A stretch of DNA of 63,994 nucleotides, filler included, from an uncultured bacterium (GTDB lineage Bacteria > CAYJOG01): NCBI GenBank assembly GCA_964371695.1. It is 8 parts of 8 records of this genome, joined end to end, with 100 filler letters (N's around TTAATTAATTAA, not from the genome) between each part and the next. Parts side by side here need not be neighbours in the genome. Positions count along the whole stretch, not along the records: positions 8,468 to 16,783 come from CAYJOG010000102.1; 7 more parts are not named here. One strand, written 5' to 3'. The position numbers were made by a program, and so were the translations under genes. Below, piece after piece: positions 8,368-33,634 of the stretch. The notes under the pieces are model-generated. The model ran no database searches. It saw only the letters and a list, made by a program, of their open reading frames with translations, and had not been told where the DNA came from. The number at the start of each line of letters is the position of its first letter. The first letter of the stretch is position 1.

Positions 8368-8467
8368 NNNNNNNNNNNNNNNNNNNNNNNNNNNNNNNNN
8401 NNNNNNNNNNNTTAATTAATTAANNNNNNNNNNNNNNNNNNNNNNNNNNNNNNNNNNNNNNNNNNNN
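8368..8467. other. Artificial scaffold linker (N run + TTAATTAATTAA + N run); also at 16784-16883, 25183-25282, 33535-33634, 41862-41961, 50174-50273, 58343-58442
   Basis: Identical 100-nt all-frame-stop spacers; enclosed scaffolds decrease in length. Confidence 0.98.
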
Positions 8468-10541: not shown

Positions 10542-11539
10542 ACGGTTTTTTCGGAAAATGGTTTCTGGGGCTTTTCCTTCTGGCGGCGATGCTGGGGGCA
10601 CCCGCTTTGCGGGCTGAGGAATCCGCCCCCCTCAAGGGCCTGAGTGTGCGGGACATGGACGTGTATTACAGCGAGCGGCTGGACATGGTGAACCTCACGG
10701 GCCGGGTGCTGGACCTGCGGGACATCCTGCTGAGCAATCAGGAGGAAGACCTCACGCTGCCCCGCTACACGTGGTTGCCCAACTACACCGTGCGGCTGTG
10801 GCTTCAGGCCGGGCCAAAGGGCAAAAAGCTGGCGCTCAACGAACTGGCGCTGATGCTGGACACCGATTTTTTCGACAACGAAAAAGGCATCATCACCCTG
10901 CGTCACCGCGACCTGGGCGTGCTGGCCGAGGTGTGGTATGGCGGCAAGGGCATCTGGGGGCCCACCCCCACGCCCCCCGCGCCCTCCGCCAGTGTGCTGA
11001 TTCCCTTTGACCGCCTCAGCAGCGGCGCGGGCGGTGTGCCGCCCTTGCCGCCGTTGCCCATGCTGGGCAGCGCCACGGGGGCGCCCCCCGCCCCCCCCGC
11101 CGGTGGGAGTGATTTTGAATACGTCATCACCGGAGCCGCAGCCGCCAGCGGGCCGGAGAGTTACAACATCACCATGAAATCGGGGGCCGGGGGTGGCGCG
11201 GCGGCGTTGCTGGCCCAGGCCGGTCAGGCCCGGCAAAAGGTGGACGTGGTGGTGAGTTATGCCACGAGCACCGTGCTGCCGCCGTCTCTCAGCGGCAAAC
11301 GCACCATCACCATGCCCTGCACCGTGGGGGCGCAAGGGGGGTTGAGTTGCGGGCCGGTGTGGCTGCCCCAGTCTGAAAAAGCCACGGCGGTGGCGCTTTG
11401 CAGCGTCAAGGATCCCCCGGCTGCTGTCAGTTCCGCGAACCCCATGGTGGGCAACATGCTGGCGGGGGCCACGGGCGGCCCCAAAGCGGCCAGCCCGCCG
11501 GTGGACTGCTCGGCCCGCACACCTGTCGGAAGGCCGTGA
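10538..11539 (+). CDS. Secreted hypothetical protein with Pro-rich linker
   Basis: Signal-peptide-like N-terminus ending ALRA; possible CTG start overlapping the mlaE stop; start uncertain. Confidence 0.6.
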   Translation: MNGFFGKWFLGLFLLAAMLGAPALRAEESAPLKGLSVRDMDVYYSERLDMVNLTGRVLDLRDILLSNQEEDLTLPRYTWLPNYTVRLWLQAGPKGKKLALNELALMLDTDFFDNEKGIITLRHRDLGVLAEVWYGGKGIWGPTPTPPAPSASVLIPFDRLSSGAGGVPPLPPLPMLGSATGAPPAPPAGGSDFEYVITGAAAASGPESYNITMKSGAGGGAAALLAQAGQARQKVDVVVSYATSTVLPPSLSGKRTITMPCTVGAQGGLSCGPVWLPQSEKATAVALCSVKDPPAAVSSANPMVGNMLAGATGGPKAASPPVDCSARTPVGRP

Positions 11540-11574
11540 GCCGTCTGGATGCCGCAAAGGTGCGGCCCGACGCA

Positions 11575-11750
11575 AGAGGCCATGGATGGCCGTTTCCGCC
11601 GCCGTGTTCAGCACGGTCGGGAATGGGCGAAAAATTTTCATCGAAAGTAGCAGTTGAATATCAACCAGTTTTTGTGGGTCCGGCTGAACCGTGCGGCGTC
11701 GTTCGTAAGGTTTCACGGATGAAACCGACGAACCAGAAAATATAAGCTGG
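11575..11750 (+). repeat. Family A structured dispersed element, copy 1 (candidate ncRNA or MITE)
   Basis: GGCC-ATGGAT-GGCC hairpin, long stem, GTTCGT-AA-GGTTTC-ACGGAT-GAAACC-G-ACGAAC hairpin, CAGAAAATATAAGC tail. Confidence 0.9.
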
Positions 11751-11823
11751 GTGGGCGGTTTAATTTGTGCACAGAGTGCTCTCCCTGTCTACTTGAATAA
11801 GGTATTTGCTCTAGGATTCCCCC

Positions 11824-12642
11824 ATGAACACTCAAGGTGTGTTGTGTGTGGTGGCGCTGCCCCTGGGCAACCTGGGGGACATCACCGACCGGGCGCGGGA
11901 AACCCTCAAAAACGCCCAGGCCATTTACGCCGAAGACACCCGCTCGCTGCAAAAACTTTCTTCGCTGCTGGGGCTGGGCCTGAGTCACCCCAAAATCCAC
12001 AGCCTGGACACCCACCACGAGGCGCGCAAGACAGAGGAAATCATCCGCCGCGTGCTGGGCGGTGAACAGGTGGCCCTGGTGAGCGAGGCGGGTACGCCCG
12101 GCGTGAGCGACCCCGGCGCACGGGTGGTGGCGGCGGTGCGCAGCGCGGGCGGCCCCGTGGCGGCGGTGCCGGGGCCAAGCATTCTTTCTGCTGCCCTGAG
12201 CCTGTCGGGACACGAGGGGCCGGTGGTGTGGCTGGGTTTTGCACCGCGCAAGGGCAAAGAACTTTTGGACTTGGTGCAGGTTTATCCCCCCCAGGCGGCG
12301 CTGTTTTTTCTCGAAAGCCCCCGCCGCCTACGGGACACCCTCACGCTGCTGCATGACCATTTCGCCGACACACCGGTGCTGCTGTTCCACGAACTCACCA
12401 AACTGCATGAAGAAGTGCTGAGCGGCACGCCCGGCGAACTGTTGTTGCGGCTGGACGCCGAACCCAAAGGGGAGTGGGCGCTGATGCTGCTGCCCAGGGC
12501 CGTGCAGGGTGAAGACGCAGAAAAACTCACCCAGGCCCTTGCGCTGGTGCAGGCGCTGAAACAACACCTGCCCCCCAGCACCGCCGCCCGCGTGGCGGCC
12601 CAGGTGACGGGCGTGGCCAAAAACAAACTGTATGGGGTGTGA
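11824..12642 (+). CDS. rsmI: 16S rRNA (cytidine1402-2'-O)-methyltransferase
   Basis: PLGNLGDIT, AEDTR, VSEAGTPGVSDPG, ESPRR, ELTKLHEE. Confidence 0.93.
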   Translation: MNTQGVLCVVALPLGNLGDITDRARETLKNAQAIYAEDTRSLQKLSSLLGLGLSHPKIHSLDTHHEARKTEEIIRRVLGGEQVALVSEAGTPGVSDPGARVVAAVRSAGGPVAAVPGPSILSAALSLSGHEGPVVWLGFAPRKGKELLDLVQVYPPQAALFFLESPRRLRDTLTLLHDHFADTPVLLFHELTKLHEEVLSGTPGELLLRLDAEPKGEWALMLLPRAVQGEDAEKLTQALALVQALKQHLPPSTAARVAAQVTGVAKNKLYGV

Positions 12643-16776: not shown

Positions 16777-16982
16777 TGGCCGCNNNNNNNNNNNNNNNNN
16801 NNNNNNNNNNNNNNNNNNNNNNNNNNNTTAATTAATTAANNNNNNNNNNNNNNNNNNNNNNNNNNNNNNNNNNNNNNNNNNNNGCCCGTGACCTCACTTG
16901 CGTTCGGTCACGGTCTGCCCTCTCCCTCAGGGAGAGGGAAAGGCCGGGCATCGCCCTTTGTCTACGTCAAATATGAATTGCT

Positions 16983-17252
16983 CTAACCCATGTATTGATA
17001 CAACGTGGCCAGGAGCACGCCGGTGTAGTTCACCATCAGCTTGAGCAGAAACGGACCAAACAGCACCAGGGTGAAAAACACCGCCAGAATCTTGGGCACG
17101 AACACCAGGGTGATTTCCTGAATGCTGGTGGCCGCCTGCACAATGCTGATGAGAAGCCCCACCACCAGCGTGGCTCCCAGAATGGGCAGGCTCGCCAGAA
17201 TCGTCACTGTCAGCGCCCGCTGGGCCAATGTGAGAACCACGTCTTCGGTCAT
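16983..17252 (-). CDS. fliQ: Flagellar export protein FliQ
   Basis: GLLISIVQAATSIQEITLVFVPK. Confidence 0.95.
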   Translation of the reverse strand: MTEDVVLTLAQRALTVTILASLPILGATLVVGLLISIVQAATSIQEITLVFVPKILAVFFTLVLFGPFLLKLMVNYTGVLLATLYQYMG

Positions 17253-17264
17253 GGGTTTTCCTTT

Positions 17265-18092
17265 CTATCGGAACGACAGCACCAAGCTCCGGCCCAACAG
17301 GTTCCAGCCGTCTACCAGCACAAAAATCAGCAGCTTGAAGGGCAGTGAAATCATCACCGGTGGCAACATCATCATGCCCATGGCCATGAGTGTGCTGGCA
17401 ATCACCATGTCAATCACCAGAAACGGCAAAAAGATCACAAACCCCAACTGGAACCCCGTGGTGAGCTCGCTGATGAGAAACGCCGGCATGAGCACATAGG
17501 TGGGCACATCCTCAATGGTTTTGGGCTGTTTTTTGAGTTTCGCCATGGACACGAACAGGGCCAGATCGCGCCTGCGGGTCTGGCGCACCATAAACCCCCG
17601 CAGGGATTTTTCCGCTACTTTCAGGGCTTGGCCGCTCGTGATTTTTTCTTCCATATACGGCGTGTAGCCCTTGTCGTACACCTCTGTAATCACCGGCTGC
17701 ATCACAAAAAAAGTGAGGAAAAGCGTGAGGCCCACCAGCACTTGGTTGGGGGGCATCTGCTGAGTGCCCAGGGCGTTGCGCACCAGCGACAGCACAATGA
17801 TGATGCGCGTGAAGCTGGTGAACATCACCAGCAGGCTGGGCAACAGCGCCAGCAGCGTGAGGCCCAGCAAAATTTGGAGCGAGGTGGAAACCTCCTGCGG
17901 GGTTTTGGCGGTTTCAGCCCCAAAGGTGATTTTGGGAATGGGCAGGGACTCGGCCCCCAGCGCCATGCCCCCCACCAGCAGCAGCACCAGTGCAGCCGTG
18001 GCCACGCCCCAGCGCCGCCACAGGCGGATCAGGTCGGGCCGCTTTGGGGTAACAACGGAAGGAGTCGGGCTGTGCCTCAAGAAACGCATCAT
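17265..18092 (-). CDS. fliP: Flagellar export protein FliP
   Basis: TSFTRIIIVL, GTQQMPPNQ, MGMMMLPP, LPFKLLIFVLVDGW. Confidence 0.96.
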   Translation of the reverse strand: MMRFLRHSPTPSVVTPKRPDLIRLWRRWGVATAALVLLLVGGMALGAESLPIPKITFGAETAKTPQEVSTSLQILLGLTLLALLPSLLVMFTSFTRIIIVLSLVRNALGTQQMPPNQVLVGLTLFLTFFVMQPVITEVYDKGYTPYMEEKITSGQALKVAEKSLRGFMVRQTRRRDLALFVSMAKLKKQPKTIEDVPTYVLMPAFLISELTTGFQLGFVIFLPFLVIDMVIASTLMAMGMMMLPPVMISLPFKLLIFVLVDGWNLLGRSLVLSFR

Positions 18093-18098
18093 ATCGCC

Positions 18099-18791
18099 TC
18101 ACACGGCACCGGAGCCGCCCTCCCCTGGGCCGGGCTGCTCACCCAGACGGCGCAGGCGCTGGCGCAGGCGGCCCACGGTGCCTTCCATCTCGGTGCGCAG
18201 CACCGCGCCGAACTCCTCGGCCAGTTCCTGCTCCAGCACCCCCAGATTTTCCACCCGCCCCAGGTCCACCAATCCCTTCTCCGTATTGGCCAGCAGGCGC
18301 ACTTCACCCGCCACGCTCACCAACATGAGCTGGCGGTTCAGCGCCACCGGCAGCGTGTCCAGCACCCGCATGTGGCGTGAGCGGCGCATTTCCGAAAGCG
18401 GCCCCGGCAGAAACTTTTTGACCAGCCAGAGCACCAGCCCCAGCAGGCCGAACACCAGCAGCAGGTTGCCCATCACCCCCCACAGGCTGGGGGGAGCCGA
18501 TTTTTCAAAATCGGGCTGGATGTAACCGAAGGGGTCCTCGGCGCCGGGCGCGCCTTCTGGGCGGAGCGTGGCGGCGGTGTTTTTTTTGCCCTCAGGGTCG
18601 GGCAAAAACGGATCGGGTTTTTCGGCCCTTGGTGTTGCCCCTTTGGCTGGCGCATAGGCGGGGGGCGCCTCTGGCGCGGGCGCGCTCTGCACCGCCCCAG
18701 GCAGGCAAAACACCAACAGACCCAAAAGCAAAAAAATGCGACGGGCACTGGTTGCCCGCCTTTTCTGCCAACCCCCGGCCCCCGAATGCAC
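18099..18791 (-). CDS. fliO: Flagellar biosynthesis protein FliO/FliZ
   Basis: TM segment followed by MRVLDTLPVALNRQLMLVSV; lies between cheY and fliP; start uncertain. Confidence 0.75.
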   Translation of the reverse strand: MHSGAGGWQKRRATSARRIFLLLGLLVFCLPGAVQSAPAPEAPPAYAPAKGATPRAEKPDPFLPDPEGKKNTAATLRPEGAPGAEDPFGYIQPDFEKSAPPSLWGVMGNLLLVFGLLGLVLWLVKKFLPGPLSEMRRSRHMRVLDTLPVALNRQLMLVSVAGEVRLLANTEKGLVDLGRVENLGVLEQELAEEFGAVLRTEMEGTVGRLRQRLRRLGEQPGPGEGGSGAV

Positions 18792-18820
18792 GGCTTGTTC
18801 CTGCGGCTGCCCCGTGCGGG

Positions 18821-19183
18821 CTATTTGCGCAGCACCTTGTTGACGGCGTCCATCACACGGTCGGCCTGAAAGGGCTTCACAATGAAATCCTTGGCCCCGG
18901 CCTGTATGGCGTCAATGACCATGGCCTGCTGACCCATGGCGCTGCACATGATGATTTTTGCATCGGGCGCGATGCGCATGATGCCCTTGACGGCGGTGAT
19001 GCCGTCCATTTCCGGCATGGTGATATCCATGGTGACCACATCGGGTTTGGTGTCATTGTATTTCTGCACGGCCTGTGCGCCGTTTTCAGCTTCCCCGACC
19101 ACTTCATAACCATGCTTGGTCAGGATGTCCCTCAGCATCATCCGCATGAAGGCGGCATCGTCAACTATTAGAACGGTGGCCAA
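18821..19183 (-). CDS. cheY: Chemotaxis response regulator CheY (Bacillus/Thermotoga type)
   Basis: VDDAAFMRMML, MDITMPEMDG, CSAMGQQ, KPF; TTG start with AAGGAGG RBS. Confidence 0.95.
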   Translation of the reverse strand: MATVLIVDDAAFMRMMLRDILTKHGYEVVGEAENGAQAVQKYNDTKPDVVTMDITMPEMDGITAVKGIMRIAPDAKIIMCSAMGQQAMVIDAIQAGAKDFIVKPFQADRVMDAVNKVLRK

Positions 19184-19195
19184 AACGGATCCTCC

Positions 19196-20227
19196 TTACT
19201 GCAAGAGAGACAGTCTTTCTTCTGGGGTGATGATATGAGATATACGCACGCCGAAATTTTCCTCCACGACAACGACTTCGCCTTTGGCGAAGAGTCTACC
19301 ATTGACCAGGATGCTGACGGGTTCGCCATGCACCTGATCAAGTTCCACGATGGACCCGGAACCGAGATCCATGATTTTTTCTATTTCCAGCCGGGTTTTG
19401 CCCAGCACCACGGTGATTTTGAGCGGGATGTCGAGCAGGCGGCCCAGATTGGCGTCAACCCCTTCGGGAAGGGTAAAGACTGGAGCGGTCACGGCCACAC
19501 GTCCGCCACCACCGCCAGCGGGCGCAGGGGCGGCGGCCTCGGCGGCGGCCTTGGGGGCGGGCGGCGCCTGGGGTGGGGCCTCGGTGAGGGCCTTGACGGC
19601 GGCGGCGGAGAGAATGCTCATGGCGCGGGTCGTTTCCGCGCCTTCTACCGACAGGTCGTATTGCACCACCGCGAGGTTTTCAGACCCCGCCATTTTGGCC
19701 AGTTCGTCCTTGATGTCCGCCATCGTGCCCCGCAGATAATTGGGACCGCCGCTGGCGATGGTTTTGCTGGACTCCACCGAGAGGGTGGTGACCATGGTGC
19801 CACAGAAGGTTTCCATGAGGGACTCATAGGCGCTCTGGCCCATGTCGCTCAGGTCGGCGGGGGCGCTGTCGGCCCCGGGGTTCACCATCTGCTCGGCCAT
19901 GTACGACGCCAAAGGCATGGGAATGGCCATGAGGTGGATGAATTTCTTTTTGAGCGTGATGGGACAGGTGATGGACGCGAACATCTCCTCAAAACGATCG
20001 GCGATGGAATCGGGCGTGGTGCTTTCCACTGCCACGTGGCTGGCTGCCGTGTTGCGCCCGATCATGGTGGTGAGCGTTTCGCACCCGGCGTTGATGGCCT
20101 TGGTGATCATGCTGGTGAAACTGTCCCGCTCACCGTCGTCCATGGTCTTCGCTTCTTCTTCGAGAAGCTCTTCATCCACCGACAACAACGCGTCGATTTC
20201 GTCTTGTGTCAAACCACCTTCTTCCAT
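19196..20227 (-). CDS. fliY: Flagellar switch protein FliY/FliN (CheC-like plus SpoA domain)
   Basis: LTQDEIDALL CheY-binding peptide; C-terminal LLDIPLKITVVLG...GEVVVVEENFGVRI. Confidence 0.85.
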   Translation of the reverse strand: MEEGGLTQDEIDALLSVDEELLEEEAKTMDDGERDSFTSMITKAINAGCETLTTMIGRNTAASHVAVESTTPDSIADRFEEMFASITCPITLKKKFIHLMAIPMPLASYMAEQMVNPGADSAPADLSDMGQSAYESLMETFCGTMVTTLSVESSKTIASGGPNYLRGTMADIKDELAKMAGSENLAVVQYDLSVEGAETTRAMSILSAAAVKALTEAPPQAPPAPKAAAEAAAPAPAGGGGGRVAVTAPVFTLPEGVDANLGRLLDIPLKITVVLGKTRLEIEKIMDLGSGSIVELDQVHGEPVSILVNGRLFAKGEVVVVEENFGVRISHIITPEERLSLLQ

Positions 20228-21216
20228 CAGCTCACCTCCTCCGCCAAAGATGCCTTGGAGGTTAGCTGAACTGCCACAAACTTTCCTGATTTACCTGGCT
20301 TGCCGTGGAACTTGAGGCGGTCGCCCAGATAGACGGGCAGGTGATCCGCTGCGGCGCGGTCCAGACGCAGAACATCTCCTGCGTCCATGGTAAGTAGGTC
20401 TCTAAGCAATACGGCGGTTTCTCCGAGGTGTACGCTAACCGGCAATTGATGCACCTTCAAGCGCTTTTCCAGTGCGTCCTGACTTTCGCGTGAAAGTTTC
20501 TTTTTGCTCGACGTGAAAAAATGCTGCGCGCTCAGCTTGTGCAGAATCGGTTCCAGCGTGAGATAAGGCAGACACAGCGTCATCACGCCGTTGTTTTCGC
20601 CGATGGTGGCCTCGAAGCTGATAAGCACTACCATGCTGCTGGGACTGGCGATCTGCACAAACTGCGGGTTGCTTTCAATTTTTTCCATCTTGGGATTGAG
20701 GCTGATGATGGCCGCCCAGCTTTCGCGCAAAAAGTTATACGCATCCACCAGCACGCCGCGCATCAGGCCCTCTTCGATATCGGTGAGTTCGCGGATTTTG
20801 CCCACCTTGCCGGGACCCCCCAGCAGGCGATCCAGCAGCGGAAAGGCGATCATGGGGTTGATCTCCAGCACCGCCGTGCCCTCCAGCGGACTGAGGCTGA
20901 ACAGCGACACGATGGAGGGGTTGGAAATGGACCGGATGTATTCGTCAAAGGTGAGCTGATCCACACTCACCACTTCGATTTTGCACAACGACCGCAGCTT
21001 GCCCGACAGGTTGTTGGACAACAGCCGTGCGAACGTGTCGTGCAGCATTTGCAGGGTGCGGGTCTGTTCCTTGGCGAATTTGTTGGGGCGCTTGAAATCA
21101 TAGACTTTCACAGGACGCTCTTTCTCGTCCTTTTTCATCTGGTTGATGTCCACGTCCTCCTGCTGAATGGCCCGGAGGAGGGCATCAATTTCGCTTTGTG
21201 AAAGTATTTCCGCCAA
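20227..21216 (-). CDS. fliM: Flagellar switch protein FliM
   Basis: LSQSEIDALL, YDFKRPNKF, DRLLGGPG, ESNPQF. Confidence 0.96.
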   Translation of the reverse strand: MAEILSQSEIDALLRAIQQEDVDINQMKKDEKERPVKVYDFKRPNKFAKEQTRTLQMLHDTFARLLSNNLSGKLRSLCKIEVVSVDQLTFDEYIRSISNPSIVSLFSLSPLEGTAVLEINPMIAFPLLDRLLGGPGKVGKIRELTDIEEGLMRGVLVDAYNFLRESWAAIISLNPKMEKIESNPQFVQIASPSSMVVLISFEATIGENNGVMTLCLPYLTLEPILHKLSAQHFFTSSKKKLSRESQDALEKRLKVHQLPVSVHLGETAVLLRDLLTMDAGDVLRLDRAAADHLPVYLGDRLKFHGKPGKSGKFVAVQLTSKASLAEEVS

Positions 21217-21255
21217 GGTGGGTTGTCTCCTTAAAACAACGGGGGTCAGGCCCTG

Positions 21256-22008
21256 TCAGTCAATGACAAAGTCCTGGAAAATGATGTCGCGCAAACGGAA
21301 GCGGTTTTCGGGGTCTCGTTGAAGGCCTTCGTTGATTTTAGTCACCATGGCCTGACGCACAAACTCGATGGTGCGCGCCTTGCCACCGTCATCGGGCAGT
21401 GTGTACTTGGCCGTCGTCTTGTCGTAATCCACCTGCGCGAAGAAAAACTGCACCGCCTGCTGAATGTCGGGCGCATAGGCCTGGAACCATTCCGGCGCCT
21501 GACCGAAGGTGCCCGCAGGTCCGCCGCCATGACCGCCGCCTTCTGCCGCTTTTTCCTCTTTACCGCCACTGGCGGCATGGCCCATTTCCTCGGCCACTTC
21601 CTTGTCCACCACCACCAGCACGGTGAGGCGGGCGAAGTTGCCACGGCCCACGTTCAGCGTCATGGGCTGTGGCGGCGTGGCGAGGTAATATTTTTCTGTT
21701 TTCTGGCTGGAGTGAAAACCGGGCAGTTCCACGCCTTCCACCTTGAACTCGCGGTTGTTCAGCGCCACGATCATTTCGCCCTGCTTCTTGGCCAGGGCCT
21801 CCAGGCTTTCGCGCAGTTCCTCGGTGCCCTTGTTGTCGCCGCCCTTGCCGCCGGACATGAACACCACCACCACGATCACCACGGTGCTGACGATGGTGGG
21901 CAAAAACGCGCCCATGTTCACGCCGCCGCCGGGCAGCTTGAGCTTTTTCTTTTTGGCCGGGGCGCCACCGCCGTCGTCCAGGTTATCTAACAGATCGTCT
22001 TCGGCCAT
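21256..22008 (-). CDS. fliL: Flagellar basal-body protein FliL-like
   Basis: KKKK + TM helix, MTLNV, C-terminal IIFQDFVID; upstream of fliM; AAGGAGG RBS. Confidence 0.7.
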   Translation of the reverse strand: MAEDDLLDNLDDGGGAPAKKKKLKLPGGGVNMGAFLPTIVSTVVIVVVVFMSGGKGGDNKGTEELRESLEALAKKQGEMIVALNNREFKVEGVELPGFHSSQKTEKYYLATPPQPMTLNVGRGNFARLTVLVVVDKEVAEEMGHAASGGKEEKAAEGGGHGGGPAGTFGQAPEWFQAYAPDIQQAVQFFFAQVDYDKTTAKYTLPDDGGKARTIEFVRQAMVTKINEGLQRDPENRFRLRDIIFQDFVID

Positions 22009-22024
22009 GGTGCCTCCTTCGGGG

Positions 22025-22252
22025 TTAAACGGAGTCTTCGGGGTAGAACTTCTTGACGGTGATGCCTGAGAAAATATAGCGCTTGAATTCTGCCACCTGT
22101 TCAACGATGTCGCGGACGGATTCTCGCACAAGAATCTGGCGTCCGGTTGTGAGGGTGATCACGGTGTTGTCCACTTTTGGCTCGATGAGTTCGATGAGGT
22201 CGGTGTTGATGACCACCGCGTCGCCTTTATTGAAACGGGTGAGTTGAATCAT
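22025..22252 (-). CDS. flbD: Flagellar FlbD/SwrD family protein
   Basis: MIQLTRFN...INTDLIELIE...TVITLTTG...VRES. Confidence 0.9.
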   Translation of the reverse strand: MIQLTRFNKGDAVVINTDLIELIEPKVDNTVITLTTGRQILVRESVRDIVEQVAEFKRYIFSGITVKKFYPEDSV

Positions 22253-22269
22253 TTGGGCAGCAGGGCGCA

Positions 22270-22298
22270 ACTATACCAACGGGGGTGGGGTGTGTCTA
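22270..22298 (-). promoter_or_regulatory. Sigma70/A-type promoter for flbD-fliL-fliM...
   Basis: TAGACA-17 nt-TATAGT with TG at the extended -10 position, just after the flgE terminator. Confidence 0.6.
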
Positions 22299-22312
22299 TT
22301 GTCCACTTTCAC

Positions 22313-22337
22313 AAAAAAGGGGGCCTTTCGGCCCCCT
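22313..22337 (-). terminator. Intrinsic terminator after flgE
   Basis: AGGGGGCC-GAAA-GGCCCCCT followed by a T run. Confidence 0.85.
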
Positions 22338-22361
22338 CAATGTCAAGGTCTGCTTAAATTG

Positions 22362-24380
22362 TTACCGCTTCAGGGCGATCAGTTCCTGGAGCATTTCGTC
22401 GGACGTGGTGATGGTGCGGGCGTTGGCCTGAAAACCACGCTGGGTGATGATCATGCTGGTAAATTCGTTGGACAGATCCACGTTGGATTGCTCCAGCGTG
22501 GCCGCCGCGATTTCACCGGCCCCGCCGATAAGGGCGGGCACCACACGGGCCAGACCGCTGTTATTGGACTGCTGGAACAGCGTGCCGCCGGTTTTGGTGA
22601 GACCTTCGGGGTTGTCGAACACCGCCACGGACAACTGGCCGACTGGGCGGCGCAGGTCGTTGGAATAGATGCCGTTGATGCTGCCAATCTGGTCAATAAA
22701 GTAACTTTCCAGCACACCCAGGGGGTAACCATCCTGGTTGATGGCGGCGGTGGTGAAGTCGCTGGCGTATTGCGTGATGCCCGCGATGAGGTTGTCGGCC
22801 AAGCCCCACTGCAGCGTGACGTTGTTGGTTTTCACCGACTTGCTGCTGATGAGCGAGGTGAACGGCGGCGGGCCGATAGGCTGGCCGATGACGGGCGAAC
22901 CGTCAAAAGTGATCTGCCCCTCCAGGCGGCTGGCGTCCAACAGACCGCTGTTTTCGAAGGTGAAGAAATTGTTGCCGCCGTTGACCGCCAGTGAGTCAAA
23001 GGCGTATTCATCGGCAAACCCGAACTCCGGCCGCCAGTCCCACAGGTTCTTGAACGACACGCCGCCTTTTACGGTGGCGCCCTGGTGCTGGAAGGTCAGT
23101 TGCAGGGTGTGAGAATTGCCCAGGCTGTCAAAGACATCGATGCTGGTTTTGCGCGTGGCGCTGCCCTGCACGAAGCCGTTGATGGAATCGAGGTTGGACG
23201 CTGCGCCGTTGTTGATGGTGGTGATGCCAGCGAAGTTGTTGAAGATGGTGTTGCCCACCTCCTGCGGGTCGTCGGTGCCGTTGTAGTTCAGGGCGATTGC
23301 CGCCCCCAGGCCAAAGTTGAAGTGGGTGTTGAACAGGTCGCGCCCCAGGCTGGTGCCTGCGCCGTCCTGCACGCGAAAGAACTCCTTCACCGTGGCGATG
23401 TCGTCGGTGAGATTTTCGTATTTCAGCGTGCCCTGGCTGCGGGCGTAGTTGCGGATATCCGTGCCGCTGGCGGCGCGCACGCTCAGCATCACGCCGTCGG
23501 TGTCGGGGGGCAGCAACTGGTTGTCCACGGTGAACGCACCATTGTCAAACGCCACGGTCACATTGGCCGTGCCGGTGCTGTCCGCCGAGTCAATCACTTC
23601 CTGAATCCAGCCTTCGAGATCCTTGGCGGTGGTGTTGTTGGTGATGGCGTAATAACGCACGTCGAACTTGCCCACGCTGGCGGGGGCTGCGGGGTTGGCG
23701 TCCAGTTCCACCGCAATTTGCAGCACGTCGCCGGGGCGAATGCCCATGTGAGACGGCTCCGGGCTGGTGCCGTTGTACAGGTCCACCAGAGAGTCGCTCT
23801 CCAGGGCGGGGCCCATGTCGCGGCTGGCGGCGTTGAGGTTGGAACGGAAAATCACCCGCTCGGTGGACTTGGCCTCGATTTTTTCGCCCACGATCAGGTG
23901 CAGGTCGTCAATCGCGCCGGTGGTGTCAATGATGATGTTGTTCGCTTCGTCCACCACTTGGCGGCTCCAGCCCTGCACGCGGAAACCGGCGGGGTTCACC
24001 AGTGTTCCGTCGCGATCAAAATTGAAGTTGCCGTTGCGGGTGTAAAAATTGCTGGTGCCTGATTCCACCACAAAAAAGCCGTTGCCCTGAATGGCCACGT
24101 CGCTCTGGCGGCCCGTGGTTTCGAGCACGCCCTGCACCATGATGTTGTCCACGCTGGCGATTTGTGTGCCAAGACCCACCTGAAGGGGGTTGGTGCCGCC
24201 GCGGGTGGGGCTGGGCTGGCTGGGGCCTCGAAAGGTCTGGCTGATGAGGTCCCCGAAGGTCGCACGGCCAACCTTGAAGCCGTGGGTGTTGACGTTGGCG
24301 ATGTTGTTGCCAATCACGTCCATTTTGGTCTGGTGACTTTTCAGCCCCGAGACACCGGAGAAGAAACTTGATCCTGCCAT
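22362..24380 (-). CDS. flgE: Flagellar hook protein FlgE (long form, 672 aa)
   Basis: GNNIANVNTHGFK, YTRNGNF, VFDSLG, LEQSNVDLSNEF...QRGFQANARTITTSD. Confidence 0.96.
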   Translation of the reverse strand: MAGSSFFSGVSGLKSHQTKMDVIGNNIANVNTHGFKVGRATFGDLISQTFRGPSQPSPTRGGTNPLQVGLGTQIASVDNIMVQGVLETTGRQSDVAIQGNGFFVVESGTSNFYTRNGNFNFDRDGTLVNPAGFRVQGWSRQVVDEANNIIIDTTGAIDDLHLIVGEKIEAKSTERVIFRSNLNAASRDMGPALESDSLVDLYNGTSPEPSHMGIRPGDVLQIAVELDANPAAPASVGKFDVRYYAITNNTTAKDLEGWIQEVIDSADSTGTANVTVAFDNGAFTVDNQLLPPDTDGVMLSVRAASGTDIRNYARSQGTLKYENLTDDIATVKEFFRVQDGAGTSLGRDLFNTHFNFGLGAAIALNYNGTDDPQEVGNTIFNNFAGITTINNGAASNLDSINGFVQGSATRKTSIDVFDSLGNSHTLQLTFQHQGATVKGGVSFKNLWDWRPEFGFADEYAFDSLAVNGGNNFFTFENSGLLDASRLEGQITFDGSPVIGQPIGPPPFTSLISSKSVKTNNVTLQWGLADNLIAGITQYASDFTTAAINQDGYPLGVLESYFIDQIGSINGIYSNDLRRPVGQLSVAVFDNPEGLTKTGGTLFQQSNNSGLARVVPALIGGAGEIAAATLEQSNVDLSNEFTSMIITQRGFQANARTITTSDEMLQELIALKR

Positions 24381-24457
24381 AACTGAAAGCCTCTTTCGTT
24401 TGGATTTGGGTCTTCACACGGCTGCGCAGTCGGCGCAGCCGGTTATTGGGCTTCCCG

Positions 24458-24862
24458 TCAGGGTCCGGCCCATACAAAACTGTCGATGTTCGTGACCACG
24501 CTTTCGCGCATGGCCTGAAGGTCCATCACGGTCACCACGGTGCGGGGCGGCACGCTCACGATAAACGCGTGTTCGTCCATCAGCACCACCGACTCGCGGG
24601 AGCCTTTGCCCTGGGCCTTGTCCACCGCCGTGTTCAGGCGGGTGATGTCTTCCGGCCCCAGTTCAATGCCCCGGTCCTTCAGGCGTTCTTCGGCGTGTTT
24701 GGAAAACCGCACGCCGTCTGGCTGTTGCGTGGTGAGCGCCTCGCGGCGCAGAACATCGGCGAAATCAAGCGTCCGCGCCGGGGGAGTCGCCCCCCCCGTG
24801 CGGTGGTTCGGCGCCTGTTGCGGCTTGCCAACTGGCGCCGAATAAGGTCCGTAAATCATCAT
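24458..24862 (-). CDS. Flagellar operon protein (TIGR02530-like)
   Basis: FSKHAEERLKDRGI, KGSRES, RTVVT, VVTNIDS; between flgD and flgE. Confidence 0.88.
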   Translation of the reverse strand: MMIYGPYSAPVGKPQQAPNHRTGGATPPARTLDFADVLRREALTTQQPDGVRFSKHAEERLKDRGIELGPEDITRLNTAVDKAQGKGSRESVVLMDEHAFIVSVPPRTVVTVMDLQAMRESVVTNIDSFVWAGP

Positions 24863-24881
24863 GGGATTCTCTCGTTTCTCC

Positions 24882-25181
24882 TTAAACCTGTTCCGGCGTA
24901 ATGGAGACGTTGACGATGTTCTTGAGCTTCACGGGGGTGTTGCCCACGTTGATCACCGGCTCGCCTTCGCTCACCGTCACGCTGGTCACCACGCCCTCCA
25001 CCGCGTCGCCATTGTCGTCCACGGCCTTCACGGTTTTGCCGATGAAGTTCACGGCCTGAAGCGTGCTCTGGCCACTGATGAAGCTGGTGAGCGACGTGTT
25101 CAGGTTGGTGGAGGATTCCAGCGCGGTGAGCTGGGCAAGCTGGCCGATGAAGTCCTGGTTGCTGAGCGGATCAAGGGGATC
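24882..25181 (-). CDS. flgD: Flagellar hook-capping protein FlgD (5' truncated; absent from ORF track)
   Basis: Manual translation DPLDPLSNQDFIGQLAQLTALE...AVNFIGKTV...EGVVTSV. Confidence 0.92.
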   Translation of the reverse strand, partial: DPLDPLSNQDFIGQLAQLTALESSTNLNTSLTSFISGQSTLQAVNFIGKTVKAVDDNGDAVEGVVTSVTVSEGEPVINVGNTPVKLKNIVNVSITPEQV

Positions 25182-25282
25182 CNNNNNNNNNNNNNNNNNN
25201 NNNNNNNNNNNNNNNNNNNNNNNNNNTTAATTAATTAANNNNNNNNNNNNNNNNNNNNNNNNNNNNNNNNNNNNNNNNNNNN

Positions 25283-25378
25283 ATGGTGGACATGATCGCC
25301 GCCACCCGCGCCTATGAGGCCAACACCGTGGTCATCGCCAGCAGCAAACGCATGGCGAGCGCGGCGCTGGAAATTTAG
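25283..25378 (+). CDS. flgC: Flagellar rod protein FlgC, C-terminal fragment
   Basis: MVDMIAATRAYEAN...ALEI directly upstream of fliE. Confidence 0.9.
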   Translation: MVDMIAATRAYEANTVVIASSKRMASAALEI

Positions 25379-25393
25379 GGATAATACTTCGTC

Positions 25394-25702
25394 ATGATTT
25401 CACGCCTCCATCCACTCCAAGCCCCAGAAACCGTAATTCCGGTTTTTGCCAAACCTGCGGCCAAGGCTGACCTCGCGCCCCAGGGCAGCTTTGTGGAGGA
25501 GTTGAAAAAGGCGATTCTGGACGTGGACAAATTGCAGAAAACCGCCGACCAGCAGCAGCAGGATCTTGTGCTGGGCAAAGCGCAGTCGCTGCACGAAGTG
25601 ATGCTGGCGCTGGAAAAGGCCTCGGTGGCCATGGAAATGACCCTGGCGGTGCGCACCCTGGTGGTGGACGGTTACCGCGAAATCATGAGGATGCAGGTGT
25701 AA
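25394..25702 (+). CDS. fliE: Hook-basal body protein FliE
   Basis: LHEVMLALEKA...YREIMRMQV. Confidence 0.95.
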   Translation: MISRLHPLQAPETVIPVFAKPAAKADLAPQGSFVEELKKAILDVDKLQKTADQQQQDLVLGKAQSLHEVMLALEKASVAMEMTLAVRTLVVDGYREIMRMQV

Positions 25703-25705
25703 CGG

Positions 25706-27409
25706 GTGCAGGAGAATCTCGCCGCCATACGCCAGCGGGTGCTGGACTTCTGGACGAACAGCCCGCCCATGGTGCGTTACATCACGCTTTCCACCATTGG
25801 CGTGGCGCTGGTGGCGCTCATGGCCGCGGTGGGCTACAGCTATCGCCAGAGTCAGAAACAGGTGATGGTGGCGCTGTTCATGGAACTGGACGCCAAAGAC
25901 GCCATGGCCATCAAGACCAAGCTGGACGATCAGAAGATCCCCTATGAGTTTCGGGACGTGGGAAAGTCCATTTATGTGCCCAAAGAGGTGGTGGTGGGCA
26001 CACGGCTTTCGCTGGCGGCGGAGAACCTGCCCAAAAGCGGCACCATCGGTTATGAACTGATGGATCAGCAGAGTTTCGCCACCACCGACTTTACCCAGCA
26101 GGTGAACCTGCGCCGGGCGCTGGAAGGCGAGCTGTCGCGCACCATCGAGGGGCTGGACGCCGTAGAGAACGCCCGCGTACACATCAGCATGGACGAACCC
26201 AGCCTGTTTGTGGATTCCAGCGAAGCCGCCACGGCCACCGTGGCGCTGAAGCTCAAACCCAAAATGGTGCTGGAAGACGAACAGATCAAATCGGTGGTAC
26301 ACATGGTAAGCCACAGCGTGAAGGGGCTTGTGCCTGATAAGGTCACGGTGGTGGACCAGAAGGGCAATCTGCTCTCGGACGTGCTGAAGGAAGAAGGCAA
26401 TCAAAAGAAGGTGGCCCAGCTCAAAAAGATGCAGATGGAGCTGAAAAACCGTGAGGAAGACCGCCTGCAGGAGAAAGTCCAGAGCATGCTTGAAAAAGCC
26501 TTTGGCGAAGACAAAGTGGTGACCCGCGTGACGGTGGAAATGGACTTTGACCAGGAACAGAGCGAGGCGGAGATTTATCAGCCGGTGGTGGAAGAAGCGG
26601 GGATTCCCCGCAGCAGCCAGAGCATCAAAGAAGAGTTCACAGGTGTGGGCGCACCCCCCGAAGTGGGCGTGCCGGGCACCACCAGCAACATTCCCGGTTA
26701 CAAGGAAATGGCCCAGGGCAACAATCAATACAAGCGGGCCGAAACCACCACCAACTTTGAAGTGAGCAAAACCGTGACGCGCCGCGAGCGGGACCCCGGC
26801 GTGATTCACCGGGTGTCGGTGGCGGTGATGCTGGACGCGCCCGACCGGGAGTTTGCCCAGGACCGCGTGGCCCTGCTGCGCCAGAACGTGGCCGCCGCCG
26901 GGGGCCTGGACCTGCGCACCCAGCCCCAGGGTCGGGGTGATCAGGTGGACGTGTACAACATGAACTTCAACGACAAATACCAGCGCGATCTGGAGGCCGA
27001 GCGTCTGGCCCAGCAACAGGCCAAACAGCGGCAAATGATGGTGTACACCGGTCTGTTGGTGGGGGGCATTCTGCTGGCGGGTCTGCTCACCATCCTGCTC
27101 ATGCGGGGCCAGAAACTGCCTGAGGTGGTGGAAGAAGCCGAAGAAACCGGTGTGGATCCCTTTCGCCTGGAGCCGGTGGAACTGCCGGTGCAGCCGGTGG
27201 AGCGCGTGGTGGTGTCGCCCTCGGCCATTGAGGTTGAAGCGCGGGATCTCGAAGCCGAACTGGCCGCCGAGGCGGCTTTCCCAGAACCCGCGATGAGTGA
27301 CGAGGAACAGGCCGCCCAGAAGATGCGCGACGCCGTGTTCGGCTTGGTGGACACCAACCCTGAAGCCGCGGCCACCATCATCAAAAACTGGCTGATGGAG
27401 GAGGACTGA
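25706..27409 (+). CDS. fliF: Flagellar MS-ring protein FliF
   Basis: GYELMD, RALEGELSRTI, ARVHI, VTVVDQKG, GVPGTTSN, second TM helix, IKNWL. Confidence 0.96.
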   Translation: MQENLAAIRQRVLDFWTNSPPMVRYITLSTIGVALVALMAAVGYSYRQSQKQVMVALFMELDAKDAMAIKTKLDDQKIPYEFRDVGKSIYVPKEVVVGTRLSLAAENLPKSGTIGYELMDQQSFATTDFTQQVNLRRALEGELSRTIEGLDAVENARVHISMDEPSLFVDSSEAATATVALKLKPKMVLEDEQIKSVVHMVSHSVKGLVPDKVTVVDQKGNLLSDVLKEEGNQKKVAQLKKMQMELKNREEDRLQEKVQSMLEKAFGEDKVVTRVTVEMDFDQEQSEAEIYQPVVEEAGIPRSSQSIKEEFTGVGAPPEVGVPGTTSNIPGYKEMAQGNNQYKRAETTTNFEVSKTVTRRERDPGVIHRVSVAVMLDAPDREFAQDRVALLRQNVAAAGGLDLRTQPQGRGDQVDVYNMNFNDKYQRDLEAERLAQQQAKQRQMMVYTGLLVGGILLAGLLTILLMRGQKLPEVVEEAEETGVDPFRLEPVELPVQPVERVVVSPSAIEVEARDLEAELAAEAAFPEPAMSDEEQAAQKMRDAVFGLVDTNPEAAATIIKNWLMEED

Positions 27410-27410
27410 C

Positions 27411-28445
27411 ATGGCGACCAGGGCTGCTGAAACCGACATGAAACTGGAGAACCTGACCGGCTCACAAAAGGCCGCTGTGCTCATCATCACCCTGGGGCCA
27501 GAGCGATCTGCGGACCTGTTCCAGTATTTCAGCGACGAAGAAATCGAGGCGATCACCCTTCAGATCGCCAACATGCGCAAGGTCTCGCCCGAACTGAAAC
27601 AGTCGGTGCTCGAAGACTTCTACAACATGGCCCTCGCCAAGGACTTCGTGAGCAAGGGCGGCCTGGAATATGCCCGCGAAATCCTGGCCAACGCCCTGGG
27701 CGAGGCCAAGGCCAACATGCTCATCAACCGCCTCTCCAGCATCATCGAGGTGGTTCCCTTCGACTTTCTGCGCAAGACCGACCCGGCCCAGTTGCTCAAC
27801 TTCATTCAGAACGAGCACCCCCAGACCATCGCCCTGGTGGTGGCCTATATGGACAGCATTCAGGCGGGTCAGGTGCTGGGTGGGCTGCCCCAGGAACTTC
27901 AGGTGGACGTGAGCCGCCGCCTGGCCCAGATGGAGCGCACCTCGCCTGAAGTGATTCACGAGGTGGAAAAAGTGTTGGAGAAAAAACTCGCCGCCGTCAT
28001 GAGTCATGACTATGCCAAGGCGGGCGGCGTGAAAAGTCTGGTGGAAATCCTCAACCGCGTGGACCGATCCACGGAAAAACAGATTCTGGAGCGCCTGGAA
28101 GAAGAAGACCCGGAACTGGCCGACGAAGTGCGCAAGCTGATGTTCGTGTTCGAGGACATCGTGCTGCTGGGAGACCGGGATATTCAGCGGGTGGTGAAGG
28201 AAACCGACAAAAACGACCTGTCGCTCTCGCTGAAAGGCTCTACCCCCGAAGTGCAGGAAATCGTGTTCCGCAACATGAGCAAGCGCGCCGCCGCCGACCT
28301 GAAGGACGACATGGATTTCATGGGCCCGGTGCGCGTCAAAGACGTGGAAGAAGCCCAGTCGCGTATCGTGGGTGTGATCCGCCGCCTTGAAGATGCAGGT
28401 GAGATTGTGGTATCAAGGGGTGGCACTGATGAAATTATTGGGTAA
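27411..28445 (+). CDS. fliG: Flagellar rotor protein FliG
   Basis: QKAAVLIITLG, EHPQTIAL, MFVFEDI, GPVRVKDVEEAQ. Confidence 0.97.
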   Translation: MATRAAETDMKLENLTGSQKAAVLIITLGPERSADLFQYFSDEEIEAITLQIANMRKVSPELKQSVLEDFYNMALAKDFVSKGGLEYAREILANALGEAKANMLINRLSSIIEVVPFDFLRKTDPAQLLNFIQNEHPQTIALVVAYMDSIQAGQVLGGLPQELQVDVSRRLAQMERTSPEVIHEVEKVLEKKLAAVMSHDYAKAGGVKSLVEILNRVDRSTEKQILERLEEEDPELADEVRKLMFVFEDIVLLGDRDIQRVVKETDKNDLSLSLKGSTPEVQEIVFRNMSKRAAADLKDDMDFMGPVRVKDVEEAQSRIVGVIRRLEDAGEIVVSRGGTDEIIG

Positions 28446-29496
28446 CGCCACAGCGGGCAGTAACGGTCAAGCGGCCATTGATCAGGCCGAGTGGCCGGAG
28501 TTTGACGTGGCCGCCGCGCGCACGCTGAAAAACTCCACCGGCTCACTGGGCGAAGGCGCGAGAGTTGATTTTGCGTCCATGGGCCAGCAGGCCGACGCGG
28601 GCGCGCTCGCGGACAGCCTGGGTGAAGAGGAAGGCGCAGAAGAAGACTTCGGCGGGTTTGAAGAAGACCCCACCGCCGGGGCGGGCGCACACGAACAGGC
28701 CCACGCCGAACTGGGAGACATTCACGCCGAAATCGAGGCCGCCAAAAGCGAACTCGACGCCATGATGGACGAAATCGAGACGCTGAAAATGCGCCGCGAG
28801 GAGCTTTCGGAAAGCCTGCACGAAGAAACGGAAATTCTGCTTCAGCAGGCCAAGGAAGACGCCGGCACCCACCGCGACATGCTGGTGAGTCAGGCCCAGG
28901 ACGAAGCCAGCCGCCACAAACAGGAAGTCATCGAGGAAATGGCCCGCGTGAAGAAAGAAGCCTTTGCCGAGGCCTATGCCAAGGGTCAGGAAGAAGGCCA
29001 CGCCGACGGCTTCAAGGCCGGTTGTGAGGCGGGCAAGAAAAACGCTGCCCAGGACCTCACCTCCCTGTTCAACGCCCTGCGCAGCGCCATTGAAAAAAGC
29101 AATTCTTTGTTGTCGGAAGTGGCCCAGAACAGCGAAAGCCAGATCATTTCTCTGGCCATGAACATCGCCCGCAAGGTGATTCAGCGGGAGATCATGCTGG
29201 ACCCGAAAGCCACGGCGGACCTCATCCGCGCCGCGCTGCAAAAGGTGAGCCACCGCAAGGAGTTTTTCATCAAGGTCAGCCCGGTGGATCACGAATCCCT
29301 CAAGGCCCAGGAGCCCTACCTGCGGCAGGACCTGAAACAGATCGTGCATTTCGAGGTGCTGTCTGACAGCCGCGTGGAGCCGGGAGGTTGTCTCATCGAA
29401 ACCGAAGCCGGCTCGGTAGAGGCCAGTATTCAGAAGCAGCTTCAGTTCATCGAGGAACAGTTGCAGGGGCTTGCGCCCGGCCCAGCGGGGGGCTGA
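28429..29496 (+). CDS. fliH: Flagellar export protein FliH
   Basis: Coiled coil, GxxxG repeats, GGCLIETEAGSVEA. Confidence 0.9.
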   Translation: MKLLGNATAGSNGQAAIDQAEWPEFDVAAARTLKNSTGSLGEGARVDFASMGQQADAGALADSLGEEEGAEEDFGGFEEDPTAGAGAHEQAHAELGDIHAEIEAAKSELDAMMDEIETLKMRREELSESLHEETEILLQQAKEDAGTHRDMLVSQAQDEASRHKQEVIEEMARVKKEAFAEAYAKGQEEGHADGFKAGCEAGKKNAAQDLTSLFNALRSAIEKSNSLLSEVAQNSESQIISLAMNIARKVIQREIMLDPKATADLIRAALQKVSHRKEFFIKVSPVDHESLKAQEPYLRQDLKQIVHFEVLSDSRVEPGGCLIETEAGSVEASIQKQLQFIEEQLQGLAPGPAGG

Positions 29497-29502
29497 AGCC
29501 CC

Positions 29503-30831: not shown

Positions 30832-30832
30832 G

Positions 30833-31291
30833 TTGGCCTTCCGGTTTCAGTATCAGAAGGTGCTGGAGGTCAAGCAGGTCAAAAAGGAACTGGCCAGCGT
30901 GGAGGCCAGCCGCCGCCTGCTGAAGGTGCAGGAGGCCCAGCACCGGGTGGACACCCTCAATCACCAATATCGCAGCACGCGCGACGAAATGCGCCTGAAA
31001 CTGGAAGAAGGCGAAATCCAGGCGGCCCAGCTGGCGGGCTACAGCGGTTACCTGTTCATGCTGGAGCGGCACATCCGCCTGGCCACGGGTGATCTGGACA
31101 ACGCCAAGGCCCATCACCGGGAGTCCATGAAGTTGGTGGTGGCCGCCAAGCAGCAGGAGGAAATCTTCCAGAAGCTCAAAGACCGCCACAAGGCCGACTG
31201 GAAAAAAGAAGAAGAACGCCGCGACACCGCCCAACTGGACGAAGTGGGCGGGGTGCGGCATTTTCGTCGCCAGACCGCTGTAAAAGTGTAA
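30833..31291 (+). CDS. fliJ: Flagellar export chaperone FliJ
   Basis: FRFQYQKVL start, coiled coil, QLDE near the end; directly after fliI. Confidence 0.88.
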   Translation: MAFRFQYQKVLEVKQVKKELASVEASRRLLKVQEAQHRVDTLNHQYRSTRDEMRLKLEEGEIQAAQLAGYSGYLFMLERHIRLATGDLDNAKAHHRESMKLVVAAKQQEEIFQKLKDRHKADWKKEEERRDTAQLDEVGGVRHFRRQTAVKV

Positions 31292-31299
31292 AATAAAAG

Positions 31300-31989: not shown

Positions 31990-32043
31990 GTTCATCAAAC
32001 CGGCCCATACATACGCACATGGTTGACATGAAAAACTCCTGCC

Positions 32044-32222
32044 CCAGCTTATATTCTTCTGGTTCGCCGGTTTCATCCGTGAAACCTTGCGAACAACGCC
32101 GCACGGTTCAGGCTTCCCCTATAAGCTGGGAGCTGAGCATATCCAAAGGTTTCTATTCCGCTTTCCCCCTTTCCCCGCCCGTCCTGAACCGGCGGCGGAG
32201 CGGGCCATCCATGGCCCTTGGC
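32044..32222 (-). repeat. Family A structured element, copy 2
   Basis: Reverse complement carries both GGA-loop hairpins, the long stem and the tail. Confidence 0.9.
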
Positions 32223-32280
32223 TTCCTGGTTCCACGCTCCCTTCACTGAGTAGACTGTCAGACCCTTTTTTGCTTCCACC

Positions 32281-33054: not shown

Positions 33055-33146
33055 GCGGAATGGCGAAAAAGCACCTCTTTCAACCATTTTTACTTCCTAC
33101 TTCTGCATATCCCGTGATGGACTTTGACGGGAAAGGAGGTGAGAAC

Positions 33147-33534: not shown

Positions 33535-33634
33535 NNNNNNNNNNNNNNNNNNNNNNNNNNNNNNNNNNNNNNNNNNNNTTAATTAATTAANNNNNNNNNN
33601 NNNNNNNNNNNNNNNNNNNNNNNNNNNNNNNNNN

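Follow-up and report, generated by a model that had tools for sequence, protein, structure and literature searches.

The stretch of DNA analysed here (63,994 bases, hereafter the window) consists of eight draft contigs of about 8.2 kb each, with a guanine-cytosine (GC) content of 59%. The contigs stand in order of decreasing length and are joined by N44-TTAATTAATTAA-N44 spacers at positions 8368–8467, 16784–16883, 25183–25282, 33535–33634, 41862–41961, 50174–50273, and 58343–58442, and some of them contain shorter internal N runs of 10–50 nucleotides (nt). Housekeeping genes present in the window include a flagellar operon, PBP1A, rsmI, dprA, der, mlaE, glutaredoxin, and acyl-CoA ligases. Between genes lie copies of a structured repeat, which is probably mobile and whose consensus fold, read on one strand, consists of hairpin 1, a long hairpin with a bulge, hairpin 2, and an AT-rich tail (Table 1). 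Five copies of this element had been reported in an earlier reading of the same DNA (the original prediction), and inspection of all five sequences placed them where that reading had put them. They are spread over four contigs, as it had said, and codon-position GC together with Pfam indicated that all five are intergenic.

Table 1. Copies of the element in the window, with the parts of copy 1 (ORF, open reading frame; aa, amino acids)
Feature	Position	Strand	Details
Copy 1, whole element	11559–11766	+	Covariance-model match 11569–11752, 191.7 bits; sense, between 374-aa ORF (ends 11539) and rsmI (starts 11824)
Copy 1, hairpin 1	11578–11591	+	GGCCA-UGGA-UGGCC, loop CAUGGAUG, invariant in 5/5 copies
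Copy 1, long hairpin	11597–11698	+	5′ arm 11597–11612, 3′ arm 11683–11698, bulged T 11692
Copy 1, hairpin 2	11701–11733	+	GUUCGU-AA-GGUUUCA-CGGA-UGAAACC-G-ACGAAC, loop CACGGAUG
Copy 1, AT-rich tail	11734–11747	+	CAGAAAAUAUAAGC
Copy 2	32042–32240	-	Covariance-model match 32042–32225, 184 bits; antisense within plus-strand flagellar operon in the order fliF-G-(H)-I-(J), 229-aa ORF, copy 2, MgtE_N-domain ORF
Copy 3	35115–35312	+	Covariance-model match 35125–35312, 202 bits; sense, between glutaredoxin (ends 35076) and 189-aa ORF (starts 35379)
Copy 4	39841–40037	-	Covariance-model match 39841–40024, 192 bits; antisense, between 109-aa plus-strand ORF (ends 39782) and dprA (starts 40133)
Copy 5, atypical long form	56603–56906	+	Two partial covariance-model matches; sense, between isochorismatase-family gene (ends 56588) and 95-aa ORF (starts 56972)

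The 20-mer of hairpin 2 (AAGGTTTCAYGGATGAAACC) occurred five times in the window against an expectation of 0.01, and the 14-mer of hairpin 1 (GGCCATGGATGGCC) occurred exactly once per copy. A covariance model was built from copies 1–4 and run over the whole window with its filters off. Copies 1–4 scored 184–202 bits, copy 5 was returned as two partial matches of 34.6 and 30.7 bits, and no other match in the window exceeded 12.4 bits. The match at that score (52193–52367, minus strand) lay within an AMP-binding gene and was taken as false. The density is 5 copies in 64 kb, or one per 13 kb. Codon-position GC placed the genes flanking every copy on the plus strand of their contig on both sides, and the orientation of the element to these genes is not fixed, with copies 1, 3, and 5 in sense and copies 2 and 4 in antisense. 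The sense copies stop 76, 71, and 70 nt upstream of the next start codon, respectively. The start contexts downstream of copies 1 and 5 both contain CCCCATGAAC, which among three cases could be due to chance.

Hairpin 1, the long stem with its bulged T, hairpin 2, and the compensatory pairs named in the original prediction were all present. Both small hairpins stood, although their six-nucleotide loops are better read as YGGA tetraloops on stems of 5 and 7 base pairs (bp) closed by an A-U pair. Hairpin 2 of the consensus fold comprises an outer stem of 6 bp and an inner one of 7 bp that carries the YGGA tetraloop, and the long stem (helix 2) comprises 15 pairs with a bulged U. Other details of the layout required revision. 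Similarity begins approximately 20 nt upstream of the starts first given, with a consensus near GGCAAC-CCCG-A-CC, and the interiors of 70, 70, 75, and 71 nt in copies 1–4 were reduced to an unconserved apex of 58, 58, 63, and 59 nt. The invariant halves of the clamp are 85, 84, 89, and 85 nt apart in these copies. The consensus proposed for the tail fits copies 1 and 4; the tail of copy 2 is one base longer, and those of copies 3 and 5 deviate. Folding the five copies with 15–35 nt of extra flank yielded no common basal stem joining leader and tail. Small ORFs starting at the ATG of hairpin 1 (22, 19, >60, and 14 aa in copies 1–4) had unlike ends and no spaced ribosome-binding site, and were rejected.

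Mean pairwise identity was 86% in the 5′ module and 91% in the 3′ module. The inner stem was 64–68% alike with its pairing kept, and the apex was 40% alike and AT-richer, with a GC content of 44%. Over 33 pairs in copies 1–4, 131 of 132 stem cells could pair, and sliding the partners by 1–3 columns as a control lowered pairing to 28–42%. The compensatory changes noted previously held up when tested in these copies: five pairs were changed on both sides, four of them in the long stem, compared to 1.5 in shuffles, a number reached in none of 500 shuffles. The claim that G-T pairs fall on the strand bearing the GGA loops was likewise borne out, since the firm stems contain three G-U pairs and no A-C pair, and the G-U pairs become C-A breaks on the opposite strand. 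The consensus energy was −52.95 kcal/mol on the stated strand vs. −48.79 kcal/mol on the opposite one. The strand preference derives from three G-U pairs, and since all three would fall on this strand by chance one time in eight, it is at most suggestive.

Copy 5 had been counted among the five copies. Its 5′ module, hairpin 2, and a shortened tail agree with the others, but in place of their interior it has approximately 215 nt of different sequence, in which a third GGA-loop hairpin lies (GCAUCC-AUGGAA-GGAUGC, around 56694–56711). The 5′ half of this third hairpin is complementary to the loop region of hairpin 1, and because the minimum-energy fold pairs the two, hairpin 1 of copy 5 is possibly masked. 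The two half-element matches to the covariance model indicate that copy 5 may be a nested or tandem insertion.

The figure of five copies proved to be an undercount of the family. Logan contigs of four metagenome runs (X1, X2, X5, and X6) were aligned to 11100–12200 at 80% likeness, and depth was compared between the flanks, the 5′ module (11581–11617), the apex, and the 3′ module (11692–11728). In run X1, flanks had a depth of 4.8–5.2, the 5′ module 166, the 3′ module 430, and the apex bin 0; the corresponding values were 4.4–4.6, 39, 169, and 5.5 in X2, 8.0, 897, 3060, and 0 in X5, and 8.6, 1514, 8000, and 0 in X6. Module depth was therefore 8 to about 900 times that of the flanking genes, a range used only as a sign of many contigs, and hairpin 2 was the deepest part of the element. 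The modules occurred on dozens of contigs per metagenome. The presence of five copies in only 64 kb of contigs sorted by length likewise suggests a larger family. Eight listed contig joints led from 11604 to 11669–11689, indicating other copies in which the two modules enclose a different interior. In assemblies of its host organism the family is a probable cause of fragmentation, and it could serve as a lineage marker in sediment and groundwater metagenomes. As a separate observation, contig depth also rose 4- to 50-fold in all four runs at 12062–12172, within rsmI; this rise probably reflects a conserved methyltransferase motif common to other organisms and not a repeat.

A site without the element was found in the same data. 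One contig of run X5 (4046 nt) and one of run X6 (2718 nt) join 11539 to 11848. In the X5 contig, 54 of 440 and 36 of 353 flank letters differ and 29 other letters replace the 308 skipped, and in the X6 contig 46 and 35 flank letters differ. These contigs therefore represent a relative approximately 88–90% identical in the flanks that has no element between the same two genes. The comparison of empty sites in relatives that had been proposed as a check thus found the element absent at the copy-1 site, on one contig in each of the two runs.

The ends of the element were compared with those of a classical miniature inverted-repeat transposable element (MITE) derived from a DDE transposase. No terminal inverted repeats were found: the longest inverted match between the 70-nt ends was 5–8 nt, a length reached in 9 to 190 of 200 shuffles. 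The boundary zones, in which the ends of the element are not fixed to the base, contained direct repeats of 5–6 nt that were matched in 83–187 of 200 shuffles, so that no repeat above chance stood out as a candidate target duplication. Consensus scans around the five copies detected no sigma-70-type promoter or intrinsic terminator common to them, and the 20 conserved nt that precede hairpin 1 are rich in GC and lack a −10 element. A candidate outward promoter in the tail (ATGAAA-16-TATAAG) scored 9/12 with the final T absent and was discarded. attC sites, group II intron fragments, and retron RNAs were set aside by context, given the absence of a cassette array, of a nearby reverse transcriptase or integrase, and of an Rfam match.

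With the copies, their compensated fold, their abundance, and their presence vs. absence between relatives all directly observed, we consider it about 60% probable that the element is a non-autonomous mobile repeat, present in high copy between the genes of an uncultured bacterium from sediment and groundwater, and not a group of five small RNA (sRNA) genes. The features generally expected of a mobile repeat, namely many copies and presence vs. absence at an orthologous site, were both found. The original prediction had left open a mobile element, a multicopy sRNA, or both: the great abundance of the modules in the four runs and the empty site in a close relative support the former, and a dedicated sRNA gene did not gain support, as the copies share no conserved sigma-70-type promoter or intrinsic terminator and two of the five are antisense to the genes on both sides. 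In this element, conservation falls on hairpins 1 and 2 and on the foot of the long stem, the inner stem changes only with compensation, and the apex is free to vary. Under such a scenario, the element would have spread to many intergenic sites in both orientations by means of an enzyme presumably encoded elsewhere. The lack of inverted ends and of apparent target duplications suggests that its route of movement would be strand-specific, most likely through single-stranded DNA as in REPINs or IS200/IS605 derivatives (PMC3337134; PMC6006769).

Several points weigh against this interpretation or against the RNA-binding role discussed below. The covariation rests on four sequences (five readable), and summed contig depth mixes organisms and does not equal copy number. 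The empty site could equally be a deletion in the relative, and the whole spacer differs there, so that it gives no exact boundaries. No transposase was present among the scanned proteins of the window. Hairpins 1 and 2 agree in nothing but the loop and two closing pairs, whereas in IS608-type elements the hairpins at the two ends are nearly identical. For the RNA-binding role, the CsrA consensus with which the loops were compared, (A/U)CANGGANG(U/A), was that of the literature, a motif scan of the 64-kb window gave no csrA, and read-through from neighbouring genes would read two of the five copies in antisense, exposing UCCR loops in place of GGA loops.

The resemblance of the loops to CsrA sites, pointed out in the original prediction, holds as a sequence pattern. 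The loops read AUGGAU in hairpin 1 and AYGGAU in hairpin 2 in all five copies, and these ten loops make up 10 of the 14 CAYGGATG sites in the window. Y is the sole variable loop position, and the closing pairs are conserved although the stems of the two hairpins differ. In sense transcripts, the long stem would set both CA-YGGA-UG hairpins side by side at its base, where they could form a two-site target for a dimeric RNA-binding protein of the Csr/Rsm type. Binding of such a protein to sense transcripts is tentatively predicted from sequence, at slightly less than even odds; it is favoured because Y is the only loop base that varies, the closing pairs are kept, and the third GGA loop of copy 5 is not terminal. 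The family would then consist of dispersed CsrA-binding modules, which might serve as a sponge or exert local control over neighbouring messages, as proposed for TwoAYGGAY.

The strongest competing explanation, which we nevertheless judge unlikely, is that the AYGGAT hairpins are subterminal single-stranded DNA hairpins recognised by a Y1 (HUH) transposase that acts as a dimer and belongs to the IS200/IS605 or RAYT type. The element would then be a passenger resembling a PATE or REPIN, and any similarity to CsrA sites would be coincidental. A precedent exists in IS608 and ISDra2, for which single-stranded intermediates and recognition of subterminal secondary structures by the transposase have been described (PMC6006769). 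The absence of terminal inverted repeats and of apparent target duplications would be expected under this explanation, as would a structure conserved on one strand only with G-T pairs tolerated and the three G-U pairs that copy 4, antisense to its neighbours, retains on the element's own strand. The position of the hairpins (about 20 nt inside the left boundary and about 14–33 nt inside the right), the identity of loop and closing pairs at both ends, the very high abundance, and the empty site in a relative also agree with it. On the other hand, the scanned window genes included no tnpA, RAYT, or tnpB, the left boundary is not preceded by a conserved tetranucleotide, and there is no conserved GTAG/CGTC REP tag. 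The stems of hairpins 1 and 2 are dissimilar, and recognition of ends leaves the third GGA-loop hairpin in the interior of copy 5 unexplained.

Far less probable is that the copies are independent sRNA genes like CsrB or RsmX/Y/Z, forming a small family that acts in trans to titrate CsrA, with a promoter and a terminator for each gene. Rsm sRNAs do occur in multiple copies in some Pseudomonas and Azotobacter, each copy here has two GGA-loop hairpins (at least three in copy 5), and copy 5 gave a weak RsmW match (19.1 bits, E 0.36). Against this stand the GC-rich region without a −10 element upstream of hairpin 1, the lack, in scans for sigma-70-type promoters and intrinsic terminators, of any such site common to the copies, the empty site in a close relative, and the absence of any Rfam Csr/Rsm family at threshold. 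Moreover, the modules lie on dozens of contigs per metagenome and the window has one copy per 13 kb; no sponge family is known to come near such a density. A cis-regulatory leader, either a riboswitch or a protein-binding 5′ untranslated region controlling the downstream gene, is the least probable of all: the similar spacing of the three sense copies from the next start codon would suit it, but copies 2 and 4 run antisense to both of their neighbours, the genes downstream (rsmI, unknown ORFs, a flagellar gene, and dprA) have no function in common, conservation does not extend to the apex, and a relative lacks the element at this locus.

Sampled words from the 5.2-kb region around copy 1 were present at 52–86% in four sediment-metagenome runs of one study and at 7% in two groundwater runs of another. 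Because words of this region recur in sediment and groundwater metagenomes, the source was taken to be a metagenome-assembled genome. RsmI had relatives at 37–50% identity, and FliI reached at most 60–61% identity to the best 80 loci of at least 598 relatives. In a quick, unfinished tree with 79 other sequences, FliI formed a long branch without a supported clade. A weak PorV match together with mlaE in the same assembly suggests that the host has an outer membrane. The flagellar genes lie on two contigs (16884–33534), with fliP, fliO, and flgE on one and fliF, fliI, and adjoining ORFs on the other, in an order reminiscent of the Bacillota fla/che operon. Among them, fliF was identified by scanning, fliI was taken to be the 442-aa ORF with the at least 598 relatives mentioned above, and fliG, fliH, and fliJ were named from operon position only.

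Other repeats were also observed in the window. A second, unrelated intergenic family is represented by two 94-nt copies (55843–55936 and 60521–60614, 71% alike), in both of which a conserved hairpin TTCCCGC-TTTT-GCGGGAA precedes TGACGGC and T-rich runs. At the end of the window, a 60-nt repeat containing a T8 run occurs at 63795–63854 and 63935–63994, the two copies being 140 nt apart and 98% identical; Tandem Repeats Finder reported no array. Six tandem copies of a 141-nt unit (64–74% alike, approximately 47 residues per repeat) span 42626–43630 within a 708-aa ORF (42534–44660, minus strand) that has only weak family matches, of SARP/AfsR-like type.

Searches of databases agreed with the original prediction, in which the family had not been recognised. 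At the gathering score, the only Rfam match in the window was a tRNA. With E values up to 10, copy 1 had no match and copy 3 only a chance snoRNA match, and copy 5 had weak matches including the one to RsmW, well below its gathering score of 52. RF01731 (TwoAYGGAY) was not detected in the window at the gathering score, nor on copies 1, 3, and 5 at E values up to 10. A 21-mer from hairpin 2 had one match in GTDB species genomes and two in JGI metagenome contigs, all judged due to chance for want of a surrounding element, and none in IMG/VR. A 23-mer from the 5′ module had no match in GTDB genomes, and blastn of copy 1 against plasmids and phages gave none. A literature search joining CsrA with MITEs returned nothing beyond the Rfam 12 paper.

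The ERIC/IRU and Correia (NEMIS/CREE) families consist of dispersed intergenic repeats of 100–200 nt that are found in both orientations, transcribed together with adjacent genes, and folded at the RNA level. The element resembles these as a dispersed, structured intergenic repeat in either orientation, but ERIC/IRU and Correia are near-perfect palindromes with inverted ends, the latter with TA duplications, whereas the element is asymmetric and shows neither. PATEs derived from IS200/IS605 have hairpins near both ends and strand-specific recognition, without inverted ends or duplications; the element shares the subterminal hairpins near both ends and the lack of inverted ends, and differs in having no conserved target tetranucleotide at its left boundary. 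CsrB, CsrC, RsmX, RsmY, RsmZ, and RsmW (Rfam clan CL00106) likewise have GGA motifs in hairpin loops, but these sponges come from one gene or a few, each transcribed from a dedicated promoter to a dedicated terminator, and as a rule have more GGA sites. REPINs have neither the inverted ends of classical DDE-type elements nor target duplications. They are non-autonomous, high-copy, and intergenic, with a long hairpin that includes a less conserved spacer (PMC3337134), and the element agrees in these traits with REPINs and REP sequences moved by RAYT (Bertels and Rainey, 2011, PMC3116915; PMC3337134). A REPIN consists of two inverted copies of one REP of approximately 25 nt, whereas in the present element the GGA hairpins on the two sides of the long stem are unlike, and the second is followed by an AT-rich tail. 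Although the two arms of the long stem are inverted, the whole is asymmetric and does not conform to the REP/REPIN pattern. REP superfamilies are described as having a GTAG or CGTC tag (PMC3733652), and no such tag was conserved across the copies, CGTC being present only in copies 1 and 4, where copies 2 and 3 read CGTT.

The closest counterpart was found in TwoAYGGAY, so that, while no described family matches, an analogue with the same loops has a name and the idea of CsrA binding was already published. Weinberg et al. (2010, PMC2864571) list TwoAYGGAY among probable RNAs, with human gut, gamma-Proteobacteria, and Clostridiales as its sources. Its hairpins were later reported to match a model of CsrA sites strongly, and CsrA-binding sRNAs were proposed (Gardner and Eldai, 2015, PMC4333381). 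A recent preprint (Li et al., 2026, 10.64898/2026.09.22.753630) describes two sequential hairpins on a common basal stem, with covariation, variable structural extensions, variants with extra AYGGAY hairpins, and medians of 11–23 and up to 202 copies per Pseudomonas genome. Both a Csr/Rsm sponge role and an expansion resembling that of mobile elements are discussed in the same preprint, which regards the connection between the two as unresolved. TwoAYGGAY has thus been reported from Pseudomonadota, Bacillota, and human gut (PMC2864571; 10.64898/2026.09.22.753630).

The element shares with TwoAYGGAY two hairpins with AYGGAY terminal loops, an intergenic, multi-copy distribution, and covariation, the additional GGA-loop hairpin of copy 5 parallels the variants with extra AYGGAY hairpins, and the two behave alike. 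It differs in that its hairpins flank a hairpin of approximately 100 nt, with no common basal stem in any of the five extended folds, and in its host, which belongs to an uncultured lineage and whose FliI shares no more than 61% identity with any of the 79 sequences that accompany it in the tree. Since the hairpins flank a long hairpin, a common basal stem is missing, and the Rfam model does not detect the element, it is an analogue of TwoAYGGAY with a different topology and not a member of that family. We raise as a doubtful generalisation that paired AYGGAY hairpins could be a recurrent payload of mobile intergenic repeats in distant lineages, here in an "inside-out" topology in a deep-branching bacterium. 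If the main interpretation holds, the different build would make common descent of the loops less likely and a common binding partner more likely. If the generalisation is true, selfish repeats would repeatedly gain CsrA sites, wiring neighbouring genes into the Csr regulon or buffering free CsrA; alternatively, AYGGAY hairpins would be the sites of a strand-specific mobilising enzyme, and TwoAYGGAY-type "RNAs" would be transposon ends. Under the main interpretation, a third lineage with abundant mobile repeats displaying two CsrA-type hairpins would be added to Pseudomonadota and Bacillota, which would sharpen the question raised in the 2026 preprint of whether mobility and Csr/Rsm regulation are linked.

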